From contig OY970359.1 in the NCBI GenBank assembly GCA_963718665.1, forward strand, positions 1,632,001 through 1,696,000: DNA of 64,000 bases, written 5' to 3'. Positions 8,112 through 62,156 of this stretch are shown piece after piece; the stretch's first letter is position 1; every line of letters starts with the position of its first letter. The notes beneath the pieces were generated by a model that made no database searches, was not told where the DNA came from, and saw only the letters and a program-made list of their open reading frames with translations. This stretch comes from an uncultured Phycisphaerales bacterium (GTDB lineage Bacteria > Planctomycetota > Phycisphaerae > Sedimentisphaerales > Anaerobacaceae). A program made the translations under genes and the position numbers.

Positions 8112-8762
8112 TTAGTTCCGGGGTATTTGCGGCAGCGGATTGGGTATTTCCTCTATAACTCCTGCCTGGTTGAGCCGTATTGCGAATTCAGCCATATTAT
8201 TATTGAGGAATGGGCGCAGGGAACGTTTGTTGTCGTGGATGGGGTATCCGTGTTTTTCCATTTCATCTTCGACGATATTGGGGTTTATTTTCTGCACCAA
8301 AAGCTGGTATGTTGCGATGACGCCGCCGGTTCTTGCTGCTCCGGCGGCACAATGCACAAGCACAGGCAGGTTTTGTTTTTCCGCGTTGGCTATCGCGATG
8401 ACTGCACTGGTGTAATCATTTACATCCCCGGTGCCGTTGCCGCGCATAGGGAAACTTAATACTTTAATTTTCAGCTCGGCTGCGGCCTGTTTCTCGGCTT
8501 GCTTGTCGTGGTTATTGAGGTCGGCGGAGGTAAGGTCAACAATGATGCGGATGTTGTATTTAGTCAGTGTTTTTTTTATCAGGGAGGCGGATATTTGCCC
8601 GCTGCGATAAACATGTCCCGGAACCACCACGCCGAAATTTCTCGGGATGATGTGGTATCTGATGAAACCAAACCAGGCCCATGTCGCCAATCCAATAATG
8701 ATTACCGGCACTACGACAAACACCCATTTGTGCTTGGCCCTGGATGAAGCATTAAGATTCAT
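8112..8762 (-). CDS. Membrane-anchored dual-specificity/tyrosine phosphatase-family protein (paralog 1)
   Basis: N-terminal TM; YRSGQ; HCAAGAARTG CX5R loop. Confidence 0.85.
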   Translation of the reverse strand: MNLNASSRAKHKWVFVVVPVIIIGLATWAWFGFIRYHIIPRNFGVVVPGHVYRSGQISASLIKKTLTKYNIRIIVDLTSADLNNHDKQAEKQAAAELKIKVLSFPMRGNGTGDVNDYTSAVIAIANAEKQNLPVLVHCAAGAARTGGVIATYQLLVQKINPNIVEDEMEKHGYPIHDNKRSLRPFLNNNMAEFAIRLNQAGVIEEIPNPLPQIPRN

Positions 8763-8869
8763 TTGGCAGTCCTTTCAGCATTGCGGTTTATTTTAATAAA
8801 CCGCGGATAAAGTTTATTTCCTGTTTGGTAAGTTGTCCGCCTTTAATTTTTATGGTGCCAGAGAAAGGA

Positions 8870-9526
8870 TTAGTCCCTCGGTATTTGGGGAATCGTTGCG
8901 GGGATTTCGTCAATAATTCCGGCCCGTTTGAGCCGGGTAGCCAACTCAGCCATATTATCGTTTAGAAATGAACGAAGAACCGGCCTGTCGTCGATGGCGC
9001 ATCCGTATTTTTCAATTTCATCTTCAACAATATTTGGGTCAATTTTTTGCACCAGAAGCCGGTATGTTGCGATGACGCCGCCTGTTCTTTGGGCTCCTGC
9101 GGTGCAATGCACAAGGACAGGCAGGTTTTGTTTTTCCGCGTTGGCTATCGCGATGACTGCACTGGCGTAATCATTTATATCGCCGGTGCCATTACCGCTC
9201 ATAGTAAACCTTAATACTTTGATGTTTAGTTCGGCTGCGGCCTGTTTTTCGGCCTGCTTGTCGGGGTTGTTGGGGTCGGCGGAGGTAAGGTCAACAATAA
9301 TGCGAATGTTGTATTTAGTCAGGGTTTTTTTTATCAGAGAGGCAGAAATTTGTCCGCTTCGATAAATATGTCCCGGCACTACGACGCCGAACCTTTTGGG
9401 GACAAAGCGATATTTGATGAAGCTAAACCAGACCCATACCGCTAATCCAATCACGATTGCCGACACGGCGACAAAGAGCCATTTATGCCCGGCCCCGGAA
9501 TATACTTGTGAAGCGTTAAGATTCAT
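8870..9526 (-). CDS. Membrane-anchored dual-specificity/tyrosine phosphatase-family protein (paralog 2)
   Basis: HCTAGAQRTG; long stretches identical to 8112-8762. Confidence 0.85.
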   Translation of the reverse strand: MNLNASQVYSGAGHKWLFVAVSAIVIGLAVWVWFSFIKYRFVPKRFGVVVPGHIYRSGQISASLIKKTLTKYNIRIIVDLTSADPNNPDKQAEKQAAAELNIKVLRFTMSGNGTGDINDYASAVIAIANAEKQNLPVLVHCTAGAQRTGGVIATYRLLVQKIDPNIVEDEIEKYGCAIDDRPVLRSFLNDNMAELATRLKRAGIIDEIPATIPQIPRD

Positions 9527-9551
9527 TGAGCAACCCTGTCAGCATTGTGGT

Positions 9552-10103
9552 TTATTTGAATAAACCGCGGATAAAGTTTTTCTCCTGCTCGGTAAGCTGT
9601 CCACATTTAATTTTTGCGGCTTCGGCGAGAACCTGTTCGAGGGTATTCTGCCGATTTTTGGCGAGCCATACGGCGGCAAGTACCGCGACACGGCCTTCGC
9701 CTTTGCCATCATGGACCAACACGGGAAGGTTTTCCTTGTCAGCTATTATATCGAGGAATTTTTGCTGCATATTCGCGTCGGGGAAATGAGCAGGGTCGTT
9801 TACGTTTCTTTCCAGCGGCATCTCGAAGTATTTGACGCTGTTGCTTCGGACCCAGGTCATTTCCTCACTGTACCAGTTTTGTTCGCGATGTTCAGCGGGC
9901 GAGCGGAGGTTGATGATTGTGCCGATGTGATACTTGTAAAGCAATCGGGTGTAGTCCATACCTCTGGGCTGGCCGCTTGTATAAAGGATACCCGGGCTTA
10001 TACAATTTAAGTCGGCAATCCAGAAGTTTTCGACAAGCATCACGATTGCGCCGACGATAATTGCTATTGTTATAATGGTTCGCAAGGGACTTTTCTTTTT
10101 CAC
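9552..10103 (-). CDS. Phosphatase-fold protein lacking the catalytic Cys
   Basis: YTSGQP, IINLR, PVLVHDGKGEGR (Asp at the Cys position of HCX5R). Confidence 0.7.
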   Translation of the reverse strand: MKKKSPLRTIITIAIIVGAIVMLVENFWIADLNCISPGILYTSGQPRGMDYTRLLYKYHIGTIINLRSPAEHREQNWYSEEMTWVRSNSVKYFEMPLERNVNDPAHFPDANMQQKFLDIIADKENLPVLVHDGKGEGRVAVLAAVWLAKNRQNTLEQVLAEAAKIKCGQLTEQEKNFIRGLFK

Positions 10104-27518: not shown

Positions 27519-28148
27519 GTTATGAAATGGCTTGCAGTGAAATCCTCCTTCGCTGAAGCTACGGAGGACAGGCCAGTGGAATCCGCCTCCGGCGGACAAG
27601 TATGTGGCGGAGAGGGTTTTCTGCATAAAAAACAGGGGGGATGGGGACATTAAAAAATGATGTAAGGCCAGTTTGTAGAAGTAGTTATAAACAATTGACT
27701 GTCCAAGAAGGGGGGCTTTTTGCACGGTTTTTTGGTCATTTTTGGGGCTGTTTTTTGAGTGTTTTTTAAGTCGCGTTTTTGCTGTAACCACTGCAAATAT
27801 AACTGTTTAAAATCTGGACACGAACAGTCGTATAAAACAAACGTATCAAACGCTTGTATCAAACACTTGTTATCCATTTTCGCGCAGGTCGAAAACCCTT
27901 AGATGGAAAAATTTCAAAAAATTTTATCTCCTTGTGGCACAAGGACTTATCGATTTTGGGCATATCAGGAAATCCCTTAGTTTTCGTCAAAAGCGCGCAA
28001 GTTTGCGCCATAGGGTAGAGGGACGCGTGAAGCGGTCGCCTCTGTAGTTTTGAGTTTTTAGTGTTTAGTTTTGAGTTGAGGAAGAAGAAAGCGATTGAGA
28101 TTGTGGATTCCTGCTTGCGCAGGAATGACAAGTGAAAGGGGAAGTGAA

Positions 28149-29666
28149 ATGGGATTTGACGTGAAGATATTTGGGGACGGATTCGATGCGGAGTATCTGG
28201 AATGGTTAGTGGAGCAGCGTTGGCCACAGATACAGGTACACTTCGGGAAGATGTGGGAGTATTACGCGAACCCGATAATGGATTTACATAAGGGAGCTAA
28301 TCATTCCGTCGAGCAGAAGATCAATGAAAGCGGCAAGTGCTATGTTCAGGCGCAGGAGTATGGGCTGCCGGCGAGGATAACCGGACTGGCGCGGTGCGCG
28401 GAGGCGGGGGTGTATGGCGGGAGGCCAGTCGGGGACATACGCCGCAAAGAGGTGGTGATTGAGAATGATATAGCGTGGCGGGTAAACGCTGCTGTGGATT
28501 TTTTGTTTGGGAAACCAATAAGCGTGGTGTCCCGAGCCGCTGATGGCACGAAACGAGCAGAAATCGAAGGGATAATAAAGGCGGTTTTTTCGGCCAACGG
28601 CGGAATCGGGTTTTTGCAGGATATGGCGGTGCTCGGGGGCGTCTATGGGTTCGTCGATTGTATGGTCAGGCCTGGCCGGGAAATCTACGAGCGCATTTCG
28701 GACACTCCTTCAAACCTCAACTGCGAGGTTGTGCTTGAATTGGCACGCGCAATCGGGTTAGAGCTGATAGAGGCGCCTCGGGCACTGCCTGTTCTTGATG
28801 AGAATGATTATCGAAAAGTGGTTTACTATGTTCAGCATTTTCGGCAGGTGAAGAATCAACTGACGGGCGGCGGGGTGTTGCAGCGGCTGTTTGGGCAGGA
28901 GGGGGACAAACGCAGAGTTGTGAGCGTGACGGAGATAACGTCGGCGGAGGCGTGGCAGAGGTATGAGAACAAGGAGCTTGTGGCAGAGGGGAAATTGCCC
29001 TGGGGATTTTTGCCTGTGGTTCACATTCAGAATCTGGCTCAGCCATTTTACTACGAGGGACAGAGCGACGTTGAGCCGTTGATGCCGATACAGGACGAGT
29101 TGAACACGAGGTTATCTGACAGGGCCAGCCGGATAACGATGCAGTCGTTCAAGATGTACCTTGGCAAGGGGATAGAGGGTTTCGCGGAGAAGCCCGTGTC
29201 GCCGGGAGTGATGTGGCATACGGATAATCCGGACGCGGCGATAGAGGAGTTCGGGGGTGACGAGGACCATCCGAGCGAGAGCGCGCACATAGAAGAGATG
29301 CGCGAGGCGATGGATAAAATCAGCGGAATGACGCCTTTGGTGGCGGGGGTGATTCGCACGAAGCTGGGGAATCTGACGAGCGCGGTTGCGCTTAGGTTGA
29401 CGATGATGGGGATGCTGTCAAAAACGGAGCGCAAGAGATTTACATACGGCGAGGGGCTTAAGAGGATTGTGGAGATGGTCCTGGAGATTTTGGACAAGGC
29501 GAACATCTACAAGACAAGTGAGCAGGACAGGGACGTTGAGGTAATTTTCCCGGACCCGCTGCCTGAGAATGAGATGGAAAAGCTTGATGAGGCAAAGGCG
29601 AAGAAAGAGCTTGGCGTGCCTATTGAGCGAGTGTTGAAAGAGCTTGGGTATGAAACAGTTGTGTAA
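28149..29666 (+). CDS. Phage portal protein (SPP1 gp6-like)
   Basis: ~505 aa; N..W.V...VDFLFGKP, LPVVHIQN..GQSDVE.L...QDELN..LS, SAVALR, V.V.F...LPEN. Confidence 0.8.
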   Translation: MGFDVKIFGDGFDAEYLEWLVEQRWPQIQVHFGKMWEYYANPIMDLHKGANHSVEQKINESGKCYVQAQEYGLPARITGLARCAEAGVYGGRPVGDIRRKEVVIENDIAWRVNAAVDFLFGKPISVVSRAADGTKRAEIEGIIKAVFSANGGIGFLQDMAVLGGVYGFVDCMVRPGREIYERISDTPSNLNCEVVLELARAIGLELIEAPRALPVLDENDYRKVVYYVQHFRQVKNQLTGGGVLQRLFGQEGDKRRVVSVTEITSAEAWQRYENKELVAEGKLPWGFLPVVHIQNLAQPFYYEGQSDVEPLMPIQDELNTRLSDRASRITMQSFKMYLGKGIEGFAEKPVSPGVMWHTDNPDAAIEEFGGDEDHPSESAHIEEMREAMDKISGMTPLVAGVIRTKLGNLTSAVALRLTMMGMLSKTERKRFTYGEGLKRIVEMVLEILDKANIYKTSEQDRDVEVIFPDPLPENEMEKLDEAKAKKELGVPIERVLKELGYETVV

Positions 29667-29714
29667 AAAAGGCAAAAGGAAAAAATAAAAAGGTAAAAGT
29701 TAAAAGGAGGAAGT

Positions 29715-30233
29715 ATGAGTCAAGTTGACGAAGGGGTACTGCCAGGGGCAGAAGAGGGACAAGGCGAGGTTGATGACGTGAAATTTGTTCCTGTGGGTGA
29801 ATCGATAAGGTATCGCAGGCGGGCACAGGGCGCTGAGAAACGGGTTGAGGAGCTTGCGGGAGAGCTGGTTGAGGCGAAAACTGAGGCGACGAGGTTGGCT
29901 GATGAGCTTAAGGCGACGCAGCAGGAACAGGAATTGATGAGACGGCTGGCTTCGGAGGGGACACGTGATTTGGAGGCGGCGATGCTGATAGCTAAGTCAC
30001 GATTAGCCGGGACAGATAAGGCAGATTTGAATGACGTTGTGGAGCAGTTGAAGAAGGAGAAGCAGTATCTGTTTGGCGAAAAGACGTCGGGGAGTGTGGC
30101 TGTGAGGACATCGCCGGCGAAAGAGCAGAGAAGTGGAGCCGGAGCGCTCGAGCGGTCGGCCAAGAGGGCCGCGGGGACAGGCAGCAGGAGTGATTTGCAG
30201 GAGTATATGAGAAAACGGAGAAGCATTGTTTAA
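29715..30233 (+). CDS. Putative capsid scaffolding protein
   Basis: Between portal and capsid genes; acidic N-terminus, coiled coil, LKKEKQYLF motif. Confidence 0.65.
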   Translation: MSQVDEGVLPGAEEGQGEVDDVKFVPVGESIRYRRRAQGAEKRVEELAGELVEAKTEATRLADELKATQQEQELMRRLASEGTRDLEAAMLIAKSRLAGTDKADLNDVVEQLKKEKQYLFGEKTSGSVAVRTSPAKEQRSGAGALERSAKRAAGTGSRSDLQEYMRKRRSIV

Positions 30234-30330
30234 CTGTTGTTGAAATGAAATGTTCATAGTTTGTTGTTCGTAGTTTATTGCAATGAACAATGAACACAGA
30301 ACACCGGACAATTAGGAAGGAGACAAACAC

Positions 30331-31485
30331 ATGGCATTTACAGGAAAAGCGACGTATTCGGCAGGGACGAGTTTGCCGGAATTGGCGGAAGATGTGGCGG
30401 ATTTAATCGGGATAGTATCGCCTTATGAGACGCCATTGCTGGACGCATTAGGCGACCCATTGAGAGAGGCGACAAGCATACATCACGAGTGGCTGGAAGA
30501 TGAGTTGCTACCGAACAAGGACGCGGTGAACGATAGCACGTTTACGGACCCGGATATTGACACGCAATTTGTGGTTGATAACGGGAGCAGGTTCAGGGTT
30601 GGCGACCAGATACAAATTGAGGGAAGCCGAGAACTGATGCTGGTTGTCGGAGTGAACGGCAACACGCTGACGGTGACTCGCGGGTACGGTGGAACATTGC
30701 CCGATAATCTGGCTGACAACCAGGTAATCAACATCCTGGGCAACGCGGCATTGGAAGGTGATGACAAGCCGGGGACAAGGTTTACCAATCGCAGCAGGCG
30801 AGGCAACTATACGCAGATATTCACAGCGACGGTTGAGGTGTCGGGGACGGATATTGCGGCAAGTCATCTTGGACTGGCAGATGAGATGGATTATCAGAAG
30901 CAGGAGCGGTTGCGTGAGCTTATTCGAGACCTTGAGAACACGGTCATCAACGGAGGTCAGCCGACGAGCAGTCCGCAGGGCGGGGACACAGCGAGACGGA
31001 CAATGAAGGGTGTTGTGCAGCATCTTGCGACGAACGTGTTCCGAACAGGCGACAGCGGATTCCCGATGGGAGCGGACCTTGATGAGGCGAAGATTAACTA
31101 CGCGCTTAGGGAAATCTGGGCGAGCAGCAGCGGGAATGTTGACCTGATAGTCGTGGGCGGTTTTCAGAAGCGGAAGATAAACAGTTTTGTGTCGAGCAGC
31201 AGGAGTTACGCGGCAGGGGACACGAAGTTTACCGACCTGGTGAACGTCTATGAGAGCGATTTCGGCGTCTGCCGGATAGTGACGACGCGCTGGCTGCCGC
31301 AGGATACGGTTCTGCTTCTGGATTCGTCGCGGATAGCGGTATTGCCCTTGGCGGGGAGGAGTTTCTACTTCAAACCATTGGCAAGCAGCGGCGATTATGA
31401 ATGCGGGGAGCTGATAGGCGAATACACGGTGGAGCTGAAGAACGAGGCGGCACACGGGATAATTCGAGGACTTAGCGTTAGTTAG
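30331..31485 (+). CDS. Major capsid protein (DUF5309/SU10-like)
   Basis: ETPLL..LG, HEWLEDEL, NYTQIF..VEVSGT, RDLE..ING, RTMKG, YESDFG, GEYTVELKNE.AHG. Confidence 0.8.
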   Translation: MAFTGKATYSAGTSLPELAEDVADLIGIVSPYETPLLDALGDPLREATSIHHEWLEDELLPNKDAVNDSTFTDPDIDTQFVVDNGSRFRVGDQIQIEGSRELMLVVGVNGNTLTVTRGYGGTLPDNLADNQVINILGNAALEGDDKPGTRFTNRSRRGNYTQIFTATVEVSGTDIAASHLGLADEMDYQKQERLRELIRDLENTVINGGQPTSSPQGGDTARRTMKGVVQHLATNVFRTGDSGFPMGADLDEAKINYALREIWASSSGNVDLIVVGGFQKRKINSFVSSSRSYAAGDTKFTDLVNVYESDFGVCRIVTTRWLPQDTVLLLDSSRIAVLPLAGRSFYFKPLASSGDYECGELIGEYTVELKNEAAHGIIRGLSVS

Positions 31486-31565
31486 CGTTTAGCGGGCAGC
31501 GGATAGCGTATAGGAAACTACCTAACACTATCCGCAAGGCCCGCAGCTAAAGAAGGGAGTGAAAT

Positions 31566-32222
31566 ATGGTCAGGTTGTGTGATGACAGAGACATTTTGAA
31601 GATTGAGCCGGCGTTGTTCGGGGAATTGTATCCTGCTAACCAGGTTATCGCGGCGGGAACGGCAGGTGTGCTTGTTGGGACGACATTTGAGGCGAGTGGG
31701 GCGAATTTTGTGTCGGCTGGGGTCGAGGCGGGAGATTGTGTTTATCTGAGGTCGGCGGACGGAGTTCTCGACGGCGTGTATGAGATTGCGGCGGTGGATT
31801 CAGCGATGCAGTTGTGTGTGTCGGTTTTGCGGGTAGATTCGGAGGCAGACCCGATAGCTCCGCCGACAGTGAGTGATATTTCTTATCGGATAAGCACATT
31901 CAAGCCACAAATTGCGGATGTGAGCTTGAGGTTGATGGAATACCTGTGGATTAAGCCGGGGCAGGTAATCGGAGATGTTTCGGTGGATGAGATTCTCGAT
32001 TTGGATGAGGTTAGGCAATTGTGCGCGACGGGAGTAACAGCGACGGTATACAGAATGCTGGCGAGCGGGGCGGACAACGAGAATTTTAAGGAGAAGTGGC
32101 AAAAATACGAGGAGATGTTCGGGAAGGGGATGGAGCGATGTAGGGTGGCGATAGACAAAGACGGTGACGGAGTCGCGGATTCGATTCGTTTCGGCGGGTG
32201 CGGACGGCTGATAAGAGATTAA
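31566..32222 (+). CDS. Putative head-tail adaptor/virion protein
   Basis: Immediately follows capsid gene; helical C-terminal half resembling connector proteins (positional inference). Confidence 0.45.
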   Translation: MVRLCDDRDILKIEPALFGELYPANQVIAAGTAGVLVGTTFEASGANFVSAGVEAGDCVYLRSADGVLDGVYEIAAVDSAMQLCVSVLRVDSEADPIAPPTVSDISYRISTFKPQIADVSLRLMEYLWIKPGQVIGDVSVDEILDLDEVRQLCATGVTATVYRMLASGADNENFKEKWQKYEEMFGKGMERCRVAIDKDGDGVADSIRFGGCGRLIRD

Positions 32223-32246
32223 CAAGTTGATTATCCGGGTGAAGTT

Positions 32247-32615
32247 ATGAGCGCTAAGTTGGATGGTAACAAGTTGTTTGATGAGCCAATAGTTATCGAG
32301 GCAGAGAGCGTTAGTCGAGAGTCGATTGAGAGGTCGGCGGCGGGGCTGGACGGCGTGTTGAGTATCGACCTGGGCGGACGAGGAAGGAAAATCAGGCAAA
32401 AGGGTGAGATACGGGCCAGGAGCAAGGCGGAGCTGGACAGCAAGGCGGGGGCAATATCGGCTTTTATAGATGGGGACACGCATACGCTGGTCGGTTCGCG
32501 CGGAGATACATTTGAGAATCTTCGGGTTGATTCGGTAAATGTCAAAAATGAGCGAGTGAGCGGAGCGGGTGTGGTTGTGGATTACGAAGTTGTTTATACA
32601 CAGTTGATGGTGTGA
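32247..32615 (+). CDS. Hypothetical virion/tail protein
   Basis: Co-oriented, overlaps next gene. Confidence 0.5.
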   Translation: MSAKLDGNKLFDEPIVIEAESVSRESIERSAAGLDGVLSIDLGGRGRKIRQKGEIRARSKAELDSKAGAISAFIDGDTHTLVGSRGDTFENLRVDSVNVKNERVSGAGVVVDYEVVYTQLMV

Positions 32616-33397
32616 TGATGGGACTTATTAGTAGCGGGATAAATGGCGTGAGGGTTTTTGATTTGCCGACGGGCGTTTGGGAAGACGGGGCTGTAGTAGA
32701 GGCGCCAAGAATTTGCTTAGTGAAGTGGCGGTCGGAGTGGAAGGACAAGCTGTACCAGGTTTATGTAAACGGGTATTTCGCCGGCGTAACAGTTGACCGC
32801 GAGCAGAGAGAAATGGTGGTGCAGACGCCGAGTTGTTATGAGCGGGCGGTAAGGATTGAGGTATTTGCGGTTGAGGCGAACGAGGCGGACATTGATTTTG
32901 GGGATGAGCTGGAACAAAGCAGTGGGGACAGCGGAAGGGTGAGGTTGAGATTGCTGCGGAGTCAGCGATTGCCGATGGGGGCGAGGTTTGAGGTTTACTT
33001 TGACAATGGGATAGGGGTGATTGACTACGCGAATCCTATAGGCGGCGGACGAGTATGGGGATGTTGGCAGGATAAGGCGGGATTTGGATTAGCGAGGTTC
33101 GGAGAAAATGATTTTGGTTATGAGTGGGAAAACGGAGTCGGGTTCGGAAGAGGCGGCTTTGGGCTGGGTGAGTTCGGAGTTAACGCAGATGTTATCGAAT
33201 GGATAAGCCCTATTCTGGAGGCAGGGACATACAGATTTGGAGTGAAAATAATCGACGCGAGGGGTAATGAGAGCGAGGCAAGTGAGACGGGAGAGGTAGT
33301 GGTGATACCGGCAGCGATGCCGGCGATGGGATTGGATGTGCTGTCGTTTGATAAAACGACGAACGCGTTAATGCTTGGAATTAAAGATGAGGAGTAA
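32612..33397 (+). CDS. Hypothetical beta-rich (Fn3/Ig-like) virion protein
   Basis: YRFGVK..DARGNES Fn3-like strand; Gly-Phe repeats. Confidence 0.5.
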   Translation: MMMGLISSGINGVRVFDLPTGVWEDGAVVEAPRICLVKWRSEWKDKLYQVYVNGYFAGVTVDREQREMVVQTPSCYERAVRIEVFAVEANEADIDFGDELEQSSGDSGRVRLRLLRSQRLPMGARFEVYFDNGIGVIDYANPIGGGRVWGCWQDKAGFGLARFGENDFGYEWENGVGFGRGGFGLGEFGVNADVIEWISPILEAGTYRFGVKIIDARGNESEASETGEVVVIPAAMPAMGLDVLSFDKTTNALMLGIKDEE

Positions 33398-33409
33398 AGG
33401 AGCGAAATT

Positions 33410-33850
33410 ATGGCAGAGGTATATCCGAGTGATAATGAGTTGTTGAATTTGCTGACGGACAGTGAAACCGGGGTGGAATACATAGCGACGGGACAGTCGC
33501 CATATTATTTGCAGTTTCGCAGGTTGCTGTATCGACTGCTGCAGGCGACGAGGCGGGCGAATGATTTGCGGGTATTCGACGAGGGCGGATTGAATATAGG
33601 CGCGAAGGCGGGAAGGTTCCAGGCGGGGACACAGCAGGTGAATTACGCAGGGTCGTCGGGCAACGCTTTGGCGGATAACAAGGCGAACATATACATTTAC
33701 CTGACAAACACGGGGGTTTTGGTGACGAATGAATACAGCGGATTTCCGGATATGGCGACTACGTCACACGTTCGGTTGGCGAAAGTAACGACTTCGGGCG
33801 GGGACATAACGGCGATTGAGGATTGTCGCATTCTAATAAGAATTGGGTGA
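33410..33850 (+). CDS. Hypothetical virion protein (tail-fibre anchor-like)
   Basis: LAKVTTSGGDITAIEDCR ending resembles fibre attachment domains; good RBS. Confidence 0.5.
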   Translation: MAEVYPSDNELLNLLTDSETGVEYIATGQSPYYLQFRRLLYRLLQATRRANDLRVFDEGGLNIGAKAGRFQAGTQQVNYAGSSGNALADNKANIYIYLTNTGVLVTNEYSGFPDMATTSHVRLAKVTTSGGDITAIEDCRILIRIG

Positions 33851-33871
33851 TATTGGTAAAAGGAAAAAGAG

Positions 33872-35053
33872 ATGATTTACGTAAATGATTCAAGCAGGGT
33901 GTGGCATGTCGCGAAGGTTGGTAATGACTCGAACAGTGGGCACGCGGGTCAATACCCGGTTAATCTGGCGAATGACGCGAAACTGACGATAGGTGCGGCT
34001 GTGGGCGCGGCGGCGAGCGGGGACACGATAATAATCTGGCCCGGGGATTACGCGGAGAATGTGAACGCCGGGAGCAAGGCATTAACATTTGCAGGGACAA
34101 ACAGGGCGAAGAGCCACATTGTGCCGGCGACAGGGTCGGCGTTAACTCTCGCGGACGGCTGTATAGTGAAAAACCTGTCATGCGAGGCGTTGCAGGTCGC
34201 GGCCCAGGTAGCCGGCATATACGCTTTTCAAAAGAAGAATATTGTCATTGAGGATTGTGACATATCCGGGTCTTATGACGGGCTGTATTTGTTTACGACA
34301 ACGGACGTGTATCTCAGGAATTGCCGGGTGTTCGGCAAATATGACAGCGCGAATTTTAACACGGTAACGGGGCTGATGGTCGAGAACTGCGTTTTTAGAG
34401 CAGACGGGACATACGGGACGAGCGTCAATTGCCGAGCTGCGTGGGGTAACGGCGAGGCCATCTTCAGGAAATGTCAGTTTATAGCGGGCAGAAGCGATGC
34501 TTCATCGATGACTTTGGCGGGATATTACATCGGGAGTGCTTCGGCCAGACATATTTTTGATGACTGCATTTTTGTGGCAAACGGCGGGGCGTCTTTCGCC
34601 GGTAACATTTACGCGTTTCAATCCAACTACGCGTCTGGCAACGTGATAATGAATGGCTGCGTTTTTTATACTTCCTCGACGGGAACGCCTTTGGAGATGG
34701 TTGATTTGAAGAATTCAGCGGGAGCCGTTGTGGTGAACGGGTGCAAGTATGCTTCCAGCGGCGGGATTATCACGCAATCGGACTCGAATTGGGCGAGCGC
34801 ATTGGCTGTAGCGTTATTCACGAATGGCGAGGCGAACAAACTGAAGATAGACGCGGCAGGCAGAGTTGAGACAAGCGGCGTGCAGGGGATTAATGCTGAA
34901 TCGATTCAGAAGGCGGCGAAGATGCTGCTGAATAAGGCGGCGCAGGACAAACTGACGGGTGCGATTCGGTATTACGATGACGACGGGCAGACGGTGATAT
35001 TGACGCATACGCCACAGGAAAGCGAGTCGAGTTTGACGAGGACGGTGAGCTGA
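33872..35053 (+). CDS. Right-handed beta-helix (pectin lyase fold) tailspike-like protein
   Basis: HV..GNDSNSG, TIGAAV..A.SGDTIIIWPGDY.E, repeated xENC/NGC rungs. Confidence 0.65.
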   Translation: MIYVNDSSRVWHVAKVGNDSNSGHAGQYPVNLANDAKLTIGAAVGAAASGDTIIIWPGDYAENVNAGSKALTFAGTNRAKSHIVPATGSALTLADGCIVKNLSCEALQVAAQVAGIYAFQKKNIVIEDCDISGSYDGLYLFTTTDVYLRNCRVFGKYDSANFNTVTGLMVENCVFRADGTYGTSVNCRAAWGNGEAIFRKCQFIAGRSDASSMTLAGYYIGSASARHIFDDCIFVANGGASFAGNIYAFQSNYASGNVIMNGCVFYTSSTGTPLEMVDLKNSAGAVVVNGCKYASSGGIITQSDSNWASALAVALFTNGEANKLKIDAAGRVETSGVQGINAESIQKAAKMLLNKAAQDKLTGAIRYYDDDGQTVILTHTPQESESSLTRTVS

Positions 35054-35736
35054 TGGAAGCGGCGTGGATGAGAGAGGCGTTGTTCGCGGGGCAGACGGCG
35101 AACGGTTTTAAGCTGGGGACGACAGCGACGCTGGGGTGGTTCTGGATGAGGTTAAATGGCTGTCGGATAGCGTATCGCGGACAGAGTATGGATGAGGTTG
35201 ATTTTGATAACATACTCACTGTCGCGGGAGCAGGAATAGATGAGATTGCAATGCCAGGTTACTTATCGCACGAGGCGGGAGAGACGTATTTTTATGTTGT
35301 GCGGTGCGCGAATAGATGCGGGGATATTGAACGGACACTACGGGCGGCGGCGAAGGTTACGATTGGTGATGACGGCAAGTTAGGCAAGGCGAGGCCGAAT
35401 GAAGTTGTGGGGTTAAAAGCGGAACAAGGACAGGAGGGAGAGATTGAGATTACCTGGACATACAACCCGATGGAACAGGATAGTGTGCCTGTGGAGATGA
35501 GGATTTACGGGGACAACGGGACGGGTGAGATTGATTATCAAAATCCGATTGCGGTAGTGAAGTATAAGGGGCGGAGGTTTTACAGGCACAGGATTGAGAG
35601 ACCAGCGGACGGGCGGTATCGGTTCGCGGTAAGAACGGCAGACGCAAATGGTAACGAGTGCGAGTCGAAACAGGATGTTACGGTTGAGATTAGCAGGACG
35701 AATTTGGAAGCTATTCAGATTATTGGTGCGATATGA
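35053..35736 (+). CDS. Fn3-like domain protein
   Basis: YFYVVRCAN..G.E, P..V.GL.AE...I.ITW, YRFAVRTAD.NGNE. Confidence 0.55.
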   Translation: MEAAWMREALFAGQTANGFKLGTTATLGWFWMRLNGCRIAYRGQSMDEVDFDNILTVAGAGIDEIAMPGYLSHEAGETYFYVVRCANRCGDIERTLRAAAKVTIGDDGKLGKARPNEVVGLKAEQGQEGEIEITWTYNPMEQDSVPVEMRIYGDNGTGEIDYQNPIAVVKYKGRRFYRHRIERPADGRYRFAVRTADANGNECESKQDVTVEISRTNLEAIQIIGAI

Positions 35737-36800
35737 CGAACAGGGTGGATTTGTATCAGCCGGAGAGAAGAGGGACGGCGTTGCCTGGGGGTGGGGCGTT
35801 TGTTTTTGTTGAAGGGAGATTATGCCCGGAACTGGAAGTTGTGGAGATAGCCAGAGGCGGGATGGGCGAGTTTGGTTCAGCGAGGATGAGAAATAACGCG
35901 GACAGCGAGATTGAAATCGGGAAGCCCGTAGTAATCAAATGGTTTTATAACAATTGTTATCCTGCGGGAGGCGCGGAGGGGATTGCGATTTTCGTCGGAG
36001 AGGTAGAGACGATTGAGACGGCTATCGGACCAGAGGACGAGAGTATTGAAATCGTGGCGAGAGATTTCAGTTTGGCGATGGAGGGGATAAGCGTATTGGG
36101 GAGATGGGAACGGGGAGTTGACGGTCAGGTTGCCTTTGCAGCGGGAGCGAAGACGATTTTTAATGAGAATGGTTTGGCAAACGCGGCTGATGAAACAGCG
36201 GATTGTAACGGCAGCAGGATACGGGCGTTTGCGGCGGAGGGTGTGGAAGCGAAGTTGTGGGATTTCGCGGAGATAATAGGGTATTTGCTTTGTGAGTATT
36301 TGCCTGCGGGGCAGTTGGGTATCCCGGAGGCGAGCAGGATAAGGGCGTTGACGGCGGGGGAGGTGATTGAGGACCTTGATGTTACGGGGAGGAGTTTGCT
36401 TGAGGCGATAAGCCGATGCTGCGAACGGGCGGGCGTTAAGTTTAAGTTTGTGCCGAGGTTGGGCGAGACGGGGCCGGAAAGCGGAATAGTGTTTTATCGA
36501 ACGGGAATAAATAGAGCAGTTGAGCTGAATCTGCAAAAGCAGGGCGAACGGCTGAACATATCGAAGACGAATATCTGGAAAGTTAATGCGTCAAGAAACG
36601 CCGACGGCGATACATTTGAAGTGCAGACGCCTTATTTGGCGATTGGCTTTGAGGTCGGGGATATCGCAGGGGCGGCCCCGGACAGCAGGGATGTGTTATC
36701 GACGAGGAACAACATAAACCCGGCGGTAATTGAACGGGTGAGGATGGATTTTGGGAAGCAAACGACGCAATTAAAAATTGTTAGAAACAGGACATATTGA
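35733..36800 (+). CDS. Putative tail hub/baseplate-like protein
   Basis: IFVGEV..IE......IEIVARD, SLLEAI..CC, VGD...IERV pattern of hub-type tail proteins (inference). Confidence 0.45.
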   Translation: MTNRVDLYQPERRGTALPGGGAFVFVEGRLCPELEVVEIARGGMGEFGSARMRNNADSEIEIGKPVVIKWFYNNCYPAGGAEGIAIFVGEVETIETAIGPEDESIEIVARDFSLAMEGISVLGRWERGVDGQVAFAAGAKTIFNENGLANAADETADCNGSRIRAFAAEGVEAKLWDFAEIIGYLLCEYLPAGQLGIPEASRIRALTAGEVIEDLDVTGRSLLEAISRCCERAGVKFKFVPRLGETGPESGIVFYRTGINRAVELNLQKQGERLNISKTNIWKVNASRNADGDTFEVQTPYLAIGFEVGDIAGAAPDSRDVLSTRNNINPAVIERVRMDFGKQTTQLKIVRNRTY

Positions 36801-36845
36801 TTGCGGATTTGGGATTGCAGATTGCGGATTGAAGAGGAGCGGGAA

Positions 36846-37100
36846 ATGACAAGACAAAACGGGAAATGGACGCTGAACAGGACGGTGAATTTGTCGGTTT
36901 TGGTGCAATTGGCGTTTTTGGCGTCGCTGATATTGGGAAGCTGGGTGAATCTGCAAAGACAACTGGATTCGCTTCAGCGGGACGTAACAAGCTTATTGGA
37001 AAGTCAGAAACGCTCCGCGGATAAGGTTGAAGCCCTTCAGGAAAAGGTAATATCGCACGAATTTAGATTGAAACAGCTTGAGAAGGAATTACAGGAGTGA
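36846..37100 (+). CDS. Small single-TM coiled-coil protein (holin-like)
   Basis: RBS GAGGAG; one TM followed by coiled coil. Confidence 0.5.
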   Translation: MTRQNGKWTLNRTVNLSVLVQLAFLASLILGSWVNLQRQLDSLQRDVTSLLESQKRSADKVEALQEKVISHEFRLKQLEKELQE

Positions 37101-37206
37101 TGTATTTCGTATTTAGTCGTTCGTATTTCGTCGGTCGATATACGAAATACGAGATACGCACGACGAGCTTTGTATGAAAGTCAAATTCAATTTTAGGAGG
37201 AAAATT

Positions 37207-37818
37207 ATGAAGAAGTTAGCAGTTGTAATGACAGTAGGAATGTTGTTTTGTGTTGGTGGTTCGATTTTACTTATCACGGGCGGTTGTGAAGGAATCAGGT
37301 TTGCGCCGAGCGAGACGCAGAAACAAAACGCGTGGGTGCATAATCGGACGGCGGCGATAACATCGCAAACGGCACAAAGCGAGCAGGCATCGGAAAAGCT
37401 ACAGGAACTGACGAAACTGTCGGAGACGCAGAGCCAGGCGTTTGTGGCGTATTACGGATTGCCACAGGAACTGCCGAAGGCGGATACAGTGAACGATGTG
37501 CTTAGCGAATCGAATAAGCAATTAGCGGCGACGGCGATAAAGGAATCCGGTCAAAGGCCTAACGGATGGGATATCGCAGATTCGGCGATGGAGCTTGGTA
37601 TAGCGATAGCGGGTCTCTTTGGCGGGGCAGGGGCGATAAGGGTTATGAGCTTTTTGCAGCAGGCAAAGGCGAAATCGAACGCTTTGAAGGAGATTGTTTT
37701 AGCCAATGAGATTTTCAAGAAGACAAATCCCGATTCAGCAGAGGCGTTCAAGGATGCGCAGAAGAATCAGTCGCCATTGACGAAGCAGATTGTGACGGAA
37801 GCGAAGAGCGGGGCGTAG
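37207..37818 (+). CDS. Lipoprotein with a second TM segment (spanin-like architecture)
   Basis: RBS AGGAGG; lipobox-like ITGG|C; TM LGIAIAGLFGGAGAI. Confidence 0.55.
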   Translation: MKKLAVVMTVGMLFCVGGSILLITGGCEGIRFAPSETQKQNAWVHNRTAAITSQTAQSEQASEKLQELTKLSETQSQAFVAYYGLPQELPKADTVNDVLSESNKQLAATAIKESGQRPNGWDIADSAMELGIAIAGLFGGAGAIRVMSFLQQAKAKSNALKEIVLANEIFKKTNPDSAEAFKDAQKNQSPLTKQIVTEAKSGA

Positions 37819-38461: not shown

Positions 38462-39882
38462 TTATTGTGGCATGACGTGATACAGGCCGGTGTCGTGGGC
38501 GTTGATTTTTGTGCTGAAACTGCTTTCAAACACGCCCATCTCTTTATGCGTCCACAAATTTTTTACCAGGCAGCGGCTGGCCAGCCCCATTTTGGCGAAG
38601 TCCGCGGAGACATCCACCACCTGCTTATCATTCAGATTAAACAGGGCGACATATTTATCTTTGGAATCGGGGACATCCGACATCCACGCGACCTTGTCGC
38701 CGTCGCGGAAAAGCAGCCGCGGATTTCGGCCGTGCTGATTAACCGCCAGCACTTCGTCGTTGGTAATCAGCGACAGTGTCCATTCGTCACAACTGGGCAT
38801 ATCGCCCCCGAACATCAGCGGCGAATTAAAAATGCTCCACAGGGTAATCAGAGTGACCTGTTCGTCTTTGGTAAAATGGCTGCGGCGGTCCTGCCCGCGT
38901 TCGGCACGGATGCCGATGCGTCCCAGCGGCAGCATATCACAGTCGGGCCAATAGCCGGGGCCGCCTTTGGACATCCACTTCTCGCAGAGGCCGAATGTTT
39001 CTTTTAGAGAACGCCAGTTATCCCAGAAATCGCCGGACATCCGCCACAAGTTAGCGTTTGTCTTCAGATGCTCGGCGTCACCGACAGGCGCCGGGCCTGG
39101 CGAGAGACTCAGTACGATATTCGGGCCGTATGTATCGAGGGCCTTGCGCAGCAGTTGGACTTCTTCTTTGTGGTACGGCGACGACATATCGTCGCATTTG
39201 ATATAGTCCACACTCCACTGGGCGTACAGTTGGATAATCGAATCGTAATACGCCTGCGCACGGGGCGAGCCGGATTTACGCCATACATATCGGTAATCCA
39301 TTTGCAGGTGCCGTTGGGGTCGGCGATATCGGCGGCGGTATAAGATACACCTTTGACAGGCGTTTTATCCTTTGACGGCTTGACGCGGGATGCCGCGCAT
39401 GATATGAATGCCGAACTTCAGACCTTTGTTGTGGACATAATCGGCCAGCGGCTTAAACCCGTTGCCGTCGGCGGCGGAAGGAAAACGATTGACCGCGGGG
39501 ATAAGCCGGCCCCAGGAATCCATCTCCAGCGGGGCAAAGTTATTGTAGCCCTGCGCCCGGGCATTGGGTTCATACCATTGTATATCGACGACGATATACT
39601 GCCAGCCATGGGACTTAAGGTGTTCGGCCATATAGTCGGCGTTGGCCTTGACTTCTTCCTCGCGGACGCACGGGCCGTAACAATCCCAGCTGTTCCAGCC
39701 CATCGGAGGCGTCGGGGCAAGCGCCAATGATGCGGCTGTAAATTTGCAGCCGCATAACCCATGCTTGCCAGAAGAGAAAAAATCATTACACAAAATCCGC
39801 CGGCGAAAGCCAACCCGAATGCCTTAGCGAGCATCTGTTTTGTCGGCTGTTTCGATTTGTCGTCAAATAAGCTCATCGCCAT
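38462..39882 (-). pseudogene. GH27 alpha-galactosidase/beta-L-arabinopyranosidase with three frameshifts, fused to a duplicated DUF3788 5' end
   Basis: LAPTPPMGWNSWD, VVDIQW, GLKFGIH, VDYIKCDD, WRMSGDFWD, WPDCDML; shifts at ~39725, 39371-39373 and ~39261. Confidence 0.8.
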
Positions 39883-48582: not shown

Positions 48583-49545
48583 TTACTCCGGCTCCTGCTT
48601 TTGCATCAGCTCGATTATCTCGGCCTTTGTGGGCATCGCGTCAACCGACCCGAATTTGGTGCAGGCCATCGCACCCGCCGCCGACGCGAATTTTACGGCC
48701 TTTCGCAAATCATCGCCCACCGCCAGTGATGCCGCCAGTGCCCCGGCGAATGCGTCTCCCGTTCCCGTGTGGTCAACCAGCTCGATTGGATAAGCCGGCA
48801 CGTGGTCGGCGTTGTCCCTGTCAACGACCATACAGCCGCGTCTGCCCATAGTTATAACCGCCGCCCCCACTCCCCTGGCGACGAGGTCTGAGCCGACCAT
48901 TTTCGCGGTGCGGATATTGGCGCTGGAATGCTCGCTTATCAGCGACGCCTCGTAAAGATTCGGTATCATAACGTCCACCGAGAAATACTCCGCGGGCAGC
49001 GTCGTTTCCACTCCGGCGCACGAACCGCCCAGCACGCCCGCCGGGTCAAGAATCACTTTTTTGCCGTACAGCTTGGCGATTGTGATGGTTTTGATAATTG
49101 CTTCTTTAAGCAGCCCGGCGTGAATCAGGCACACGTCCGCCTCCGCTATCGCCCGCTCCGCAAGCTCGATATCCGCCGGCACAAGCGCAAGGTTAGCCCC
49201 GTCGTATATAATGCTCGCGTTTTCGCCCTTGGTATCTACAAGCGTCAGGATGACGCCCGTGTTTTTCGCCTGCGCAGTGAAGACGTATTTGGTTTTTACG
49301 TCGTATTGTTCCAATACTGATTTTATCGTCGCCCCAAGCGGGCAGTTGCTGATTTTGCTGATTAAATGAACTTCGCAGCCGCAAAGTGCCGCCTCGATGG
49401 CCTGATTGACTCCCGGCCCCGTAGCCGTCAGTGATAATGCCGTTCCCGTTGCCGTCTGGCCCGCCGCCGGCACCTCCGTGCACTTTATCGCAAGGTCAAC
49501 GTATGCCCCGCCGACAACAACTACGTTAGGATTCCTTTCCGACAT
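48583..49545 (-). CDS. rbsK: Ribokinase (PfkB family)
   Basis: VVVVGG..VDL, GPGVNQA, PNLYEA, VDHTGTGDAFAGALA. Confidence 0.8.
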   Translation of the reverse strand: MSERNPNVVVVGGAYVDLAIKCTEVPAAGQTATGTALSLTATGPGVNQAIEAALCGCEVHLISKISNCPLGATIKSVLEQYDVKTKYVFTAQAKNTGVILTLVDTKGENASIIYDGANLALVPADIELAERAIAEADVCLIHAGLLKEAIIKTITIAKLYGKKVILDPAGVLGGSCAGVETTLPAEYFSVDVMIPNLYEASLISEHSSANIRTAKMVGSDLVARGVGAAVITMGRRGCMVVDRDNADHVPAYPIELVDHTGTGDAFAGALAASLAVGDDLRKAVKFASAAGAMACTKFGSVDAMPTKAEIIELMQKQEPE

Positions 49546-60717: not shown

Positions 60718-61353
60718 ATGAAATGGGCAGACCTATTATCGATGGTAGGCGATGAACCGGTTTTCCGCACTGGCTTTTTAGCGCCACGGAAGGAAACCCT
60801 GGCGGAGGTGCGTATGCAATTAAGCCGCTGGGTTAAAACCGGCAGGTTAATCAAGCTTAAAAAGGGATTATATACCTTGGCTCAGCCGTACAGGAAAGTA
60901 ACGCCTCACCCTTTTCTCATCGCAAACACGATGAAGAAAGCTTCTTACGTTAGTATGCAGTCCGCGTTGGGACACTACGGGATGATTCCTGAGTATGTTC
61001 CTGCCATTACCAGTATCACAACGCAAAGGCCTGAACAGATAGAAACGCCCTTAGGCCACTTCGCATTTCGACATATCAAGAAAAACTGGTTTCATGGTTA
61101 TAGACAAATTGACCTCGGTTCAGGTCAACGGGTATTTATCGCCACTCCCGAAAAGGCTCTGCTGGATCTGGTCTATTTGACATCGCATGCCGATAACTAT
61201 GACTTTTTGAGCGAACTTAGACTCCAAAATTTGGAACAGCTGAACATTGATGTGGTTCGGGAATTAGCAGATAAAAGCAAAAGTATGAAGCTACGTCGAA
61301 CTGCCAAGCTTATTGCAAAACTATCTAAGCAGGAAACAGGGAAAGAACTATGA
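60718..61353 (+). CDS. AbiEi-like type IV antitoxin
   Basis: LSRW...G.LIKLKKGLY wHTH, SYVS..SAL..YGMIPE, ATPEKALLD. Confidence 0.82.
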   Translation: MKWADLLSMVGDEPVFRTGFLAPRKETLAEVRMQLSRWVKTGRLIKLKKGLYTLAQPYRKVTPHPFLIANTMKKASYVSMQSALGHYGMIPEYVPAITSITTQRPEQIETPLGHFAFRHIKKNWFHGYRQIDLGSGQRVFIATPEKALLDLVYLTSHADNYDFLSELRLQNLEQLNIDVVRELADKSKSMKLRRTAKLIAKLSKQETGKEL

Positions 61354-62156
61354 AGGATTTTCTCAGACAGATTCTTGGCGGCGTAGAAAATCAGATTTTG
61401 GGCCGTTGCATCATCAGGGAATATTTGCAGGCACGGCTGCTGCAATCGTTGCAGGACCGCGGGACGTTTAATACATGGGTATTCCAGAGCGGAACCGCGT
61501 TGCGGTTTCTTTACGGCATGCCGCGTTTTTCCGAGGATTTGGATTTCGCCCTTATCGAGCCGGGAATGGAAGATAATTTCCGTGAAGTTCTTGTAAACGG
61601 CCAAAAGGTTTTCATCGCCGAAGGTTATGATATCGACGTTAAGGTTAACGATACCAAAACAGTCAAATCCGCCTTTTTGCGTTTCAAAGGGTTGCTATTC
61701 GAATTGGGTTTTTCCGCCCACAAATCTGAGACGCTTTCCATCAAAGTAGAGGTGGATACGAACCCGCCTTTAGGAGCAGGCATCAGTTCGACCGTAGTCA
61801 GACGGCACGTTACTTTGAATCTAAGGCACCACGACAAAGCATCTCTGCTTGCCGGTAAGCTGCATGCCGTTTTGGCGCGTCGATACGTTAAGGGCCGCGA
61901 TATCTACGACCTTGTCTGGTATCTCTCGGACAGGACCTGGCCTGAACCGAATATTGAATTCTTGAACAACGCCCTGAGACAGACCGGTTGGGACGGTCAC
62001 GAAGTAACCCCAACAAATTGGCGAGAATTGGTTCGCCGACGTATTGAGGAATTTCATTGGAAGCAGGTCGTTGAAGATGTCAGACCTTTCCTCGAGAGAA
62101 CGGAAGATGTTGCATTGTTGACAAAAGAAAACCTCTTAGGCCTGTTGCAGGCGTAA
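61350..62156 (+). CDS. AbiEii-like nucleotidyltransferase toxin
   Basis: F.SGTALR..Y...RFSEDLDF, IKVEVD, K..A..R..KGRD.YDL. Confidence 0.85.
   Translation: MKDFLRQILGGVENQILGRCIIREYLQARLLQSLQDRGTFNTWVFQSGTALRFLYGMPRFSEDLDFALIEPGMEDNFREVLVNGQKVFIAEGYDIDVKVNDTKTVKSAFLRFKGLLFELGFSAHKSETLSIKVEVDTNPPLGAGISSTVVRRHVTLNLRHHDKASLLAGKLHAVLARRYVKGRDIYDLVWYLSDRTWPEPNIEFLNNALRQTGWDGHEVTPTNWRELVRRRIEEFHWKQVVEDVRPFLERTEDVALLTKENLLGLLQA

Follow-up and report, generated by a model that had tools for sequence, protein, structure and literature searches.

A putative host-owned, phage-derived particle system with an unlinked packaging motor in Sedimentisphaerales (Planctomycetota)

Gene transfer agents (GTAs) are phage-derived particles that carry host DNA. 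To our knowledge, only a handful of independent domestications of phages into GTAs are known, and none in Planctomycetota. Here we describe a cluster of phage structural genes in a 64,000-nucleotide stretch (the window) of an uncultured Phycisphaerales bacterium (GCA_963718665.1, contig OY970359.1, positions 1,632,001-1,696,000, forward strand; genome label G000, 2.61 Mb). Unless a locus is named, positions are numbered along the window. Twelve intact open reading frames (ORFs), g01 to g12, occupy positions 28149-37818, all on the + strand and separated by gaps of at most 97 nt or overlapping. They run in the order portal, scaffold, SU10-type capsid, adaptor, tail genes including a beta-helix spike and a hub, and two envelope proteins. 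A preliminary description, made from the letters of the window, had reported 12 intact co-oriented frames here, and the ORF list bears this out. We read the cluster as part of an ancient, domesticated, vertically inherited, host-owned particle system that belongs to Sedimentisphaerales and has relatives elsewhere in Planctomycetota, and put the probability of this reading at about 85%. No description of the system as a GTA, a capsid or a terminase was found in the literature on Planctomycetota, Sedimentisphaerales or Phycisphaerae, a search that stopped short of subscription journals and supplements.

RcGTA of Rhodobacter capsulatus has head, tail and TerS/TerL genes without integrase or replication genes, occupies more than one locus, and descends vertically with its host under purifying selection. 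The planctomycete system is alike in all of these respects: its particle genes are chromosomal and lack integration, replication and lysogeny genes, they descend vertically under selection, and the system has a terminase of its own, unlinked in G000. The parts themselves differ. In RcGTA an HK97-type capsid goes with a prohead protease, and the tail is long and has a tape measure, whereas the planctomycete system has a PF17236 capsid, a scaffold and a short tail. Neither a PF05065 capsid nor a prohead protease or tape measure was found in the cluster, whose capsid matches PF17236 only. The planctomycete genes also form two divergent operons that are often split, and the system is lost often within a genus. 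Judged from its genes, the planctomycete system arose independently of RcGTA and the two are not homologous. Other independently derived GTAs (Bartonella BaGTA, Brachyspira VSH-1/BhGTA, Desulfovibrio Dd1 and Methanococcus VTA) are likewise tamed phage particles encoded by the host, but they come from other phyla and probably from other capsid lineages.

Phage SU10 and other short-tailed PF17236 phages share with the planctomycete system the capsid family, the adaptor fold and a short tail without tape measure. Their capsids, however, are at most 31% identical to it, which is the value for the best cultured-phage capsid, and the planctomycete system has no genome replication or lysis enzyme module. 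Unlike SU10-type phages, it has a hub of the gp27/Mu gp44/VgrG type, a kind usually seen in long-tailed phages and injection systems. Capsid-forming phage-inducible chromosomal islands (cf-PICIs) resemble the tail-less variants described below, in which genes for portal, capsid, adaptor and terminase are present and tail genes are absent. The cf-PICIs carry integrase and replication genes and move horizontally, whereas none of these genes was found here and descent is vertical. Encapsulins are also virus-derived shell proteins kept by a host, but they are not known to have a portal, scaffold, adaptor, tail or terminase, all of which the planctomycete system has.

The distribution of the cluster was examined in 41 genomes of Sedimentisphaerales (Phycisphaerae, Planctomycetota), 23 of them from the same genus and 29 of high quality. 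The capsid gene is present in 27/41 relatives, including 21/29 high-quality genomes and 12/23 within the genus, and the gene order is kept. It is single-copy in 26/27 carriers, and G010 has an extra weak match (E 3e-9, 29% identity). Capsid identity to G000 drops from 96% to 57% with kinship while dxs drops in parallel from 96% to 50%. Capsid relatives are encoded in 353 stretches of species-representative genomes, with identities of at least 79% throughout the best 80. A capsid profile run over 401 Planctomycetota genomes matched 53, G000 included: 8/8 in the order, 12/15 others in the class and 32 genomes in other classes. Of these 32, 17 belong to one family, 16 of them with E <= 1e-128. 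Several large Planctomycetota families had no match (0/20, 0/12 and 0/23). Other-class capsids (loci L194-L199; genomes G207, G170, G256, G076, G287 and G302) are 47-50% identical and embedded between host genes, with argS, a class II aminoacyl-tRNA synthetase gene and ftsY as neighbours; portal-, scaffold- and adaptor-sized ORFs adjoin the capsid gene. Within the genus the cluster always lies between dinG and DUF3788, and in other families it is flanked by different host genes (dnaA, cmk, tpiA, pheA, metH, rpoN, queG). Among viral contigs in IMG/VR, three loci are at least 65% identical to the capsid and the other 10 at most 37%. One of the three, L138, has the same host-embedded gene order, and in L139 and L221 the available sequence stops at the capsid gene. 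These three loci are the element itself.

Vertical descent is seen in the trees. A head tree (portal and capsid, 23 genomes) has 12/20 splits in common with dxs and 14/20 with TerL. The Robinson-Foulds distance between head and dxs is 16 of 40, against a mean of 39.7 and a minimum of 36 in 1000 label shuffles. Patristic distances correlate closely (Spearman 0.92 for head and dxs, 0.95 for head and TerL). Head proteins evolve at about 0.8 times the dxs rate, and between families with dxs identities of only 50-60% the capsid is the better conserved of the two. Pairwise dN/dS (the ratio of nonsynonymous to synonymous substitution rates), which averages a long shared history and is blind to recent relaxation, ranges from 0.087 for the capsid to 0.27 for g09 over all 12 genes, and is 0.11-0.17 in neighbouring host genes. 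The preliminary description had proposed a particle-making module inherited with the host, and the trees and the purifying selection support it.

The same description had offered two branches, a GTA with an unlinked packaging motor or a capsid repurposed without DNA, and a motor is present in the genome. The packaging operon (G000:C1:975253-984635; locus L040, 9254-18636, minus strand) lies outside the window, about 0.68 Mb from the portal gene. TerL is a single 522-aa ORF (G000:C1:975253-976821) that matches PF17289 at 35.6 bits, above the cut-off, and phrog_2 at 1.8e-20. The terminase families PF03237, PF03354, PF04466, PF20441 and PF05876 had no match in the whole 2.61-Mb genome; only PF17289 matched. 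Across 30 aligned TerL orthologues, both Walker motifs (A and B) are conserved, as are the nuclease aspartates. Upstream of TerL on the same strand are rpiB, a 134-aa ORF, a TerS-like gene (phrog_2538, 3e-7; TerL and TerS together span G000:C1:975253-978332) and a gene for a ParB-N-domain protein. Then follow an inserted type IIG-like methylase gene, a spore-photoproduct-lyase-like radical-SAM gene, the 218-aa ORF x218, an ABC-type ATPase gene (phrog_293, 4.5e-30) and a gene for a helix-turn-helix (HTH) protein resembling sigma-70 region 4. The order HTH, ATPase, x218, (ParB), TerS, (rpiB), TerL is kept into other families of the order. Because TerL and TerS are both in the genome, a GTA with an unlinked motor is favoured over a DNA-free capsid.

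Linkage between the two halves was counted in the 80 best capsid-bearing loci of the 353 stretches from species-representative genomes. The packaging operon lies 1.8-7 kb upstream of the portal gene in 22/80 loci and is divergent in 22/22. Where at least 7 kb of upstream sequence was available (40 loci), the packaging operon is found in 14, dinG is found instead in 11, as in the window, and the remaining 15 show neither. The genes between the two halves are host genes, and a PfkB kinase gene is among them in 21/22 loci; in the window a PfkB kinase gene lies at 48583-49545. In G030 the x218 gene follows g12. A spore-photoproduct-lyase-like gene (PF20903, 5.8e-37) sits between g11 and g12 in 18/36 loci holding both (for example L014:9354-10445, L024:16383-17552 and L029:15286-16392), and the same gene is found inside the packaging operon in G000 (L040:15503-16672, minus strand) and G002. 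The neighbouring loci, x218 and the lyase-like gene argue that both halves go back to a single ancestral element, about 20 kb long and made up of two divergent operons, that would later have split in the genus of the window.

Restriction-modification genes flank the TerL locus (L040:3534-5518, minus strand; an MjaI-type endonuclease and an N6/N4 methylase), and the type IIG-like methylase gene at L040:13072-15408 (minus strand) is inserted in the packaging operon in G000 only. PADLOC 2.0, run on 22 proteins of the system, found no known defence system. Its matches were the inserted methylase (type IIG restriction-modification), weak hits for the ABC-ATPase (mad3, mad8) and weak hits for the ParB-like protein to two type II methyltransferase models (E 1.3e-7 and 2e-4).

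The surroundings of the cluster are those of ordinary host genes, as had been claimed. Upstream are dxs, nadK (NAD kinase) and genes for a DinG-like helicase and Kdo kinase; downstream are DUF3788 and DHH phosphoesterase genes. Neither an integrase nor a terminase, replication gene or endolysin turned up when the 45 other ORFs of the window were searched with Pfam, and the same search of 98 flank ORFs from the loci of 13 relatives yielded no integrase, terminase or replication gene. The mobile-element genes seen near the cluster are insertion sequence transposases only, in G037 and G031. Around the cluster no direct repeat of 14 nt or longer was found, of the kind expected of att sites, and the sole tRNA gene of the window is 12 kb away. 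The prophage hallmarks integrase, att repeats, repressor and replication module were not found in these searches, and the satellite hallmarks integrase, primase and replication genes were found at neither the head cluster nor the packaging locus. The G skew said to be shared with the neighbours is alike or slightly higher in the cluster (0.29-0.43, against 0.24-0.31 in upstream + strand genes), and GC content is like that of the flanks. An ordinary prophage is excluded.

Of the 12 cluster proteins, seven have no family match in Pfam or PHROGs at E <= 0.01; NCBIfam has no model for any of the 12 save a sub-threshold NosD-type beta-helix match. The portal label given to g01 (28149-29666) holds (PF05133 SPP1_portal, 2.1e-16, 60.4 bits, cut-off 25.5; phrog_64, 5.6e-24; dN/dS 0.12), and orthologues 46-94% identical are present in the loci of 24/25 relatives. 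The g01 frame is open from a TTG at 28095, and that longer reading frame crosses an inverted repeat, ATTCCTGC-TTGC-GCAGGAAT, 22 nt before the portal ATG (28107-28126, approximate coordinates counted back from 28149). Comparable hairpins lie 5' of the portal gene in several same-genus loci. The ATG at 28149 is preceded by a purine-rich site, AAAGGGGAAG, resembling a ribosome-binding site, and is most likely the portal start rather than the TTG. The next gene, g02 (29715-30233, dN/dS 0.19), is a putative scaffolding protein gene, found between the portal and capsid genes at every locus compared. The product matches phrog_194 at 1.3e-6, and the PF06810 match (1.6e-7, 31.9 bits) is under the curated cut-off of 35. 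The major capsid protein of SU10 type is encoded by g03 (30331-31485, dN/dS 0.087), and here the earlier label is firmly borne out by PF17236 (7.7e-85, 285.4 bits, cut-off 24.1), with a match to profile positions 11-291 of 292, and by phrog_1328 (1e-75).

The product of g04 (31566-32222) had been called adaptor-like. Sequence profiles of g04 and g12 run against PDB sequences gave no match for one and a single chance-level match for the other. An AlphaFold2 model of g04 was built from 16 orthologues (mean pLDDT, the predicted local distance difference test score, of 82) and compared with about 48,000 PDB representatives using VIA-align. The best matches are overwhelmingly neck or head-to-tail adaptor proteins, among them Mu neck (Z 9.8), phage B2 tail (Z 8.8), SU10 tail (7z47_A, Z 7.5) and HK97 gp6 (Z 6.8). 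A BFVD entry named 'Head to tail adaptor' matches at 1.1e-4, and Foldseek returned no PDB match at E <= 0.001. The gene is kept at every locus, tail-less loci included. By its predicted fold, g04 is confirmed as a head-to-tail adaptor.

The tail block runs from g05 to g10. The gene g05 (32247-32615, dN/dS 0.16), first of this optional block, would encode a small tail or neck protein and has no family match. The same is true of the candidate tail proteins g06 (32612-33397, dN/dS 0.18) and g09 (35053-35736, dN/dS 0.27, the highest of the 12), which are conserved with the block; the Fn3 label given earlier finds no Pfam match at E <= 0.01 in either and is not confirmed. The best conserved tail protein is g07 (33410-33850, dN/dS 0.14), 68-73% identical between families against 39-54% for g05 and g06. 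Its nearest ESM Atlas clusters are viral hypothetical proteins, one with Caudo_bapla_N in 28% of its members, a possible link that we take as a lead only. The right-handed beta-helix spike g08 (33872-35053; PF13229, 1.2e-9) is the fastest-diverging gene. It is 36-56% identical in 8/9 same-genus loci that carry it and 96% identical in the closest relative, G006, and the capsid is 84-96% identical at same-genus loci where g08 is mostly 36-56%. In other families its slot is taken by Laminin_G_3 or other ORFs.

The hub gene g10 (35733-36800) is present in a short form. The window protein has 355 aa and has lost about 255 internal residues in frame relative to the form of about 610 aa in most species: residues 1-292 and 293-353 align to 1-~290 and 547-608 of the long form. 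Across loci the lengths fall into two classes, 104 ORFs of about 600 aa and 8 of about 350 aa. The fold was modelled on a 608-aa same-genus orthologue (mean pLDDT 45), whose N-terminal ~260 residues (pLDDT 64-84) match gp27, Mu gp44 and VgrG-type hubs. The matches include HFTV1 tail (Z 12.8), the baseplate of a Streptomyces contractile injection system (Z 12.1) and Mu gp44 (Z 10.7), with 28 chains at Z >= 8. Residues 263-543 of the long hub, the counterpart of the segment deleted from the window g10, are not interpretable in the model. The predicted fold of the orthologue confirms g10 as a tail hub. No ORF of tape-measure size and no sheath gene is among the cluster ORFs, and therefore the tail must be very short.

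The last two genes encode envelope proteins of spanin-like topology, which may form an Rz/Rz1-like pair. The product of g11 (36801-37100, dN/dS 0.11) is a membrane protein that combines a coiled coil with an N-terminal transmembrane helix, and it is kept at nearly all loci, tail-less ones included. It had been labelled holin-like, but it seems closer to an Rz-type spanin; the match to the Rz-like spanin family phrog_739 is weak (E 0.0034). g12 (37174-37818, dN/dS 0.15) encodes the lipoprotein that had been proposed. A G-C lipobox is present in 12/13 aligned sequences, and a second hydrophobic helix near residue 150, LELGIAIAGLFGG, is conserved in the alignment. No match to g12 was found in Pfam, PHROGs, NCBIfam or by PDB sequence profile.

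These parts suggest how a particle might be made. From the known roles of their families, the scaffold and the SU10-type capsid protein would assemble a procapsid on the portal, and TerS and TerL would pump DNA into it. The adaptor g04 would then close the portal and dock a very short tail (g05-g10) that consists of a gp27-type hub and a beta-helix spike and lacks both tape measure and sheath. Release through the envelope may be aided by g11 and g12, the membrane pair. Since there are no replication, integration or immunity genes, the particles could not propagate the element itself. They would carry host DNA, as GTAs do. We regard a GTA-like, DNA-carrying function as the somewhat favoured use of the particles.

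Several observations weigh against this reading, and the blindness of pairwise dN/dS to recent relaxation is one of them. The head cluster is dispensable: it is absent from 14/41 relatives, and the portal is also missing in 5/5 head-less genomes checked. Head presence requires 12 changes or more on a dxs tree of 37 genomes, in which G036 and G028 were coded as tailed even though their contigs stop short of the tail genes. The tail block is conserved at 13/23 evaluable loci, missing together at 9 and partial at 1; tail genes are present in 55/57 evaluable close relatives. Tail-less genomes are sister to head-less ones (G017/G007 and G012/G021), which suggests that the tail is lost first. The hub gene of the window has itself suffered the internal loss described above. 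Neither an endolysin nor a holin was identified, and the spanin-like g11 and g12 are the only envelope genes seen. That particles form and transfer DNA is inferred from the genes. Patchy presence, with homologues confined to prophages, had been named in the preliminary description as grounds for abandoning its proposal. The first half of this is seen in the patchy presence within the genus (12/23) and in the tail-less and head-less forms; the second half is not, as judged from the 98 flank ORFs.

The fate of TerL counts on the same side. TerL is present in 40/41 genomes, including 13/14 head-less ones, and the packaging operon is mostly intact in head-less genomes. Its dN/dS is 0.083 in head-less pairs against 0.075 in pairs with heads (0.066 for the head-less pair G019-G020), and the three values obtained (0.075, 0.083 and 0.083) are alike whether or not a head is present. 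There is little decay to be seen: TerL of G016 and of G005 contains stop codons, as does TerS of G002, all three genomes being head-less, and in G007 the operon is truncated. Broken TerL genes occur in 2/13 head-less genomes and in 0/27 with heads. Retention of TerL under purifying selection in head-less genomes suggests that the motor is not strictly dependent on the head.

The vacated site between dinG and DUF3788 in head-less G007, G019, G020, G002 and G005 (L133-L137) holds unrelated variable genes, which encode a 1710-aa PKD/CARDB protein, fn3 proteins, URO-D, a type ISP restriction-modification enzyme, FRG and DUF2971 proteins. In G019 a remnant of the g12 C-terminus, 96% identical, marks the deletion scar. 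A replacement head was sought in the same five genomes. PF04860 and PF05133 matched in 0/5, as did the control PF17236, and the HK97-type capsid family PF05065 matched in 2/5 (G019:C34:13078-13905 and G020:C2:287520-288350). These two capsids probably belong to unrelated prophages. An alternative head family was rejected as the reason for TerL retention, with PF05065 in only 2/5 and the other head families in 0/5. A host-owned particle system does not by itself explain a terminase kept without a capsid, although the blindness of pairwise dN/dS to recent loss may account for it.

The most serious competing explanation is a capsid-and-terminase kit, owned by the host, that acts together with infecting phages in the manner of cf-PICIs, loading foreign capsids or docking foreign tails, with interference, transduction or both as the outcome. 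At the 9/23 evaluable loci without a tail the four genes from portal to adaptor are intact, selection maintains the packaging operon where head genes are missing, and defence-type genes (type ISP restriction-modification, FRG-domain, DUF2971) occupy the vacated site, all of which would suit such a kit. Against it, no integrase, primase, replication gene or sign of excision was seen, and descent is strictly vertical. Tail genes of its own are kept in 55/57 evaluable close relatives, and PADLOC matched only the inserted methylase and weak ABC-ATPase and ParB-like models. We consider this explanation unlikely. Tail-less forms could also persist if the capsid had been repurposed without DNA, as a portal-bearing shell serving as a compartment or secreted protein carrier, and head cluster and terminase are indeed unlinked in the genus and lost separately. 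Such a shell is harder to reconcile with the order-wide conservation of the portal, the adaptor and TerL, whose ATPase and nuclease motifs are intact, with the two loci being neighbours in 22/80 species, and with no cargo-type gene conserved beside the capsid gene; it is quite unlikely.

Repeated loss of tail and then head, the g10 deletion, the g12 scar in G019 and the stop codons in three terminase genes (TerL of G016 and of G005, TerS of G002) are what a decaying cryptic prophage remnant without present function would leave. But 12/12 ORFs of the window are intact with dN/dS of 0.09-0.27, the capsid is more conserved than dxs between families, and the element occurs in 8/8 same-order and 12/15 same-class genomes of the phylum sample. 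Neutral remnants do not stay open over such distances, as is known from pseudogene decay, and a neutral remnant is very unlikely. An active temperate phage with an unusual integrase-free lifestyle would account for the full set of morphogenesis genes with TerS and TerL, and for the three IMG/VR contigs that carry the element. Against it stand the lack of replication, lysogeny and integration genes, the fixed chromosomal site within the genus, the interleaved host genes rpiB and PfkB kinase, the single copy per genome and trees congruent with the host. Moreover, L138, the only one of the three IMG/VR stretches to cover the cluster, has the same host-embedded gene order. Such a phage is extremely improbable.

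A host-owned particle system thus remains our preferred reading. A wider version of it, which we hold to be doubtful, would see a phylum-wide, ancient viriform family in two separable halves. The capsid and short-tail half would be expendable, and the terminase half, near-universal in the order, would be selected on its own. A host terminase might then act without a cognate head, loading foreign capsids or processing DNA. The lyase-like gene may repair a UV lesion of densely packed, dehydrated DNA; if so, it would point to a cargo of DNA that is exposed outside the cell.

The system tracks the phylogeny of its order, appears in other Planctomycetota classes and has a capsid that changes more slowly than the core enzyme dxs. 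It would be among the most widespread host-owned virus-like particle systems. If the particles moved DNA, they would provide a route of gene exchange in abundant anaerobic bacteria of sediment and peat, and also a source of non-viral "viral" signal in metagenomes. The natural variants (head and tail, head only, motor only) are a ready dissection of which parts matter. A terminase kept without a capsid raises a new question, that of how a host uses a phage packaging motor.

The intergenic DNA before the portal gene (about 27950-28148) and the DNA upstream of HTH148 (L040, L124, L129) contain short-period purine-rich repeats, GAAGACAGAAGACGG, GATTGCGGATTG and AGTTTTGAGTTTT. The same intergenic DNA has an element of about 45 nt that resembles a repetitive extragenic palindromic (REP) sequence, ends in GAAGGGGACGGAGT and is present elsewhere in the genome too. 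GGGACG-containing motifs occur 5' of the portal gene and HTH148 in the genus, with 3 and 5 occurrences in G000, and were considered as a shared promoter motif. The other sites precede ordinary genes and belong to the REP-like repeat. The motifs give no evidence for a regulon, and the candidate was rejected.

Elsewhere in the window, three tandem paralogous dual-specificity/tyrosine phosphatase genes (8112-10103, minus strand) lie beside glycosyltransferase and YdjC genes. An AbiEi/AbiEii type IV toxin-antitoxin pair is encoded at 60718-62156 (+ strand). The alpha-galactosidase ORF at 38462-39301 (minus strand) matches its Pfam profile only from position 105 and is probably a 5'-truncated gene.

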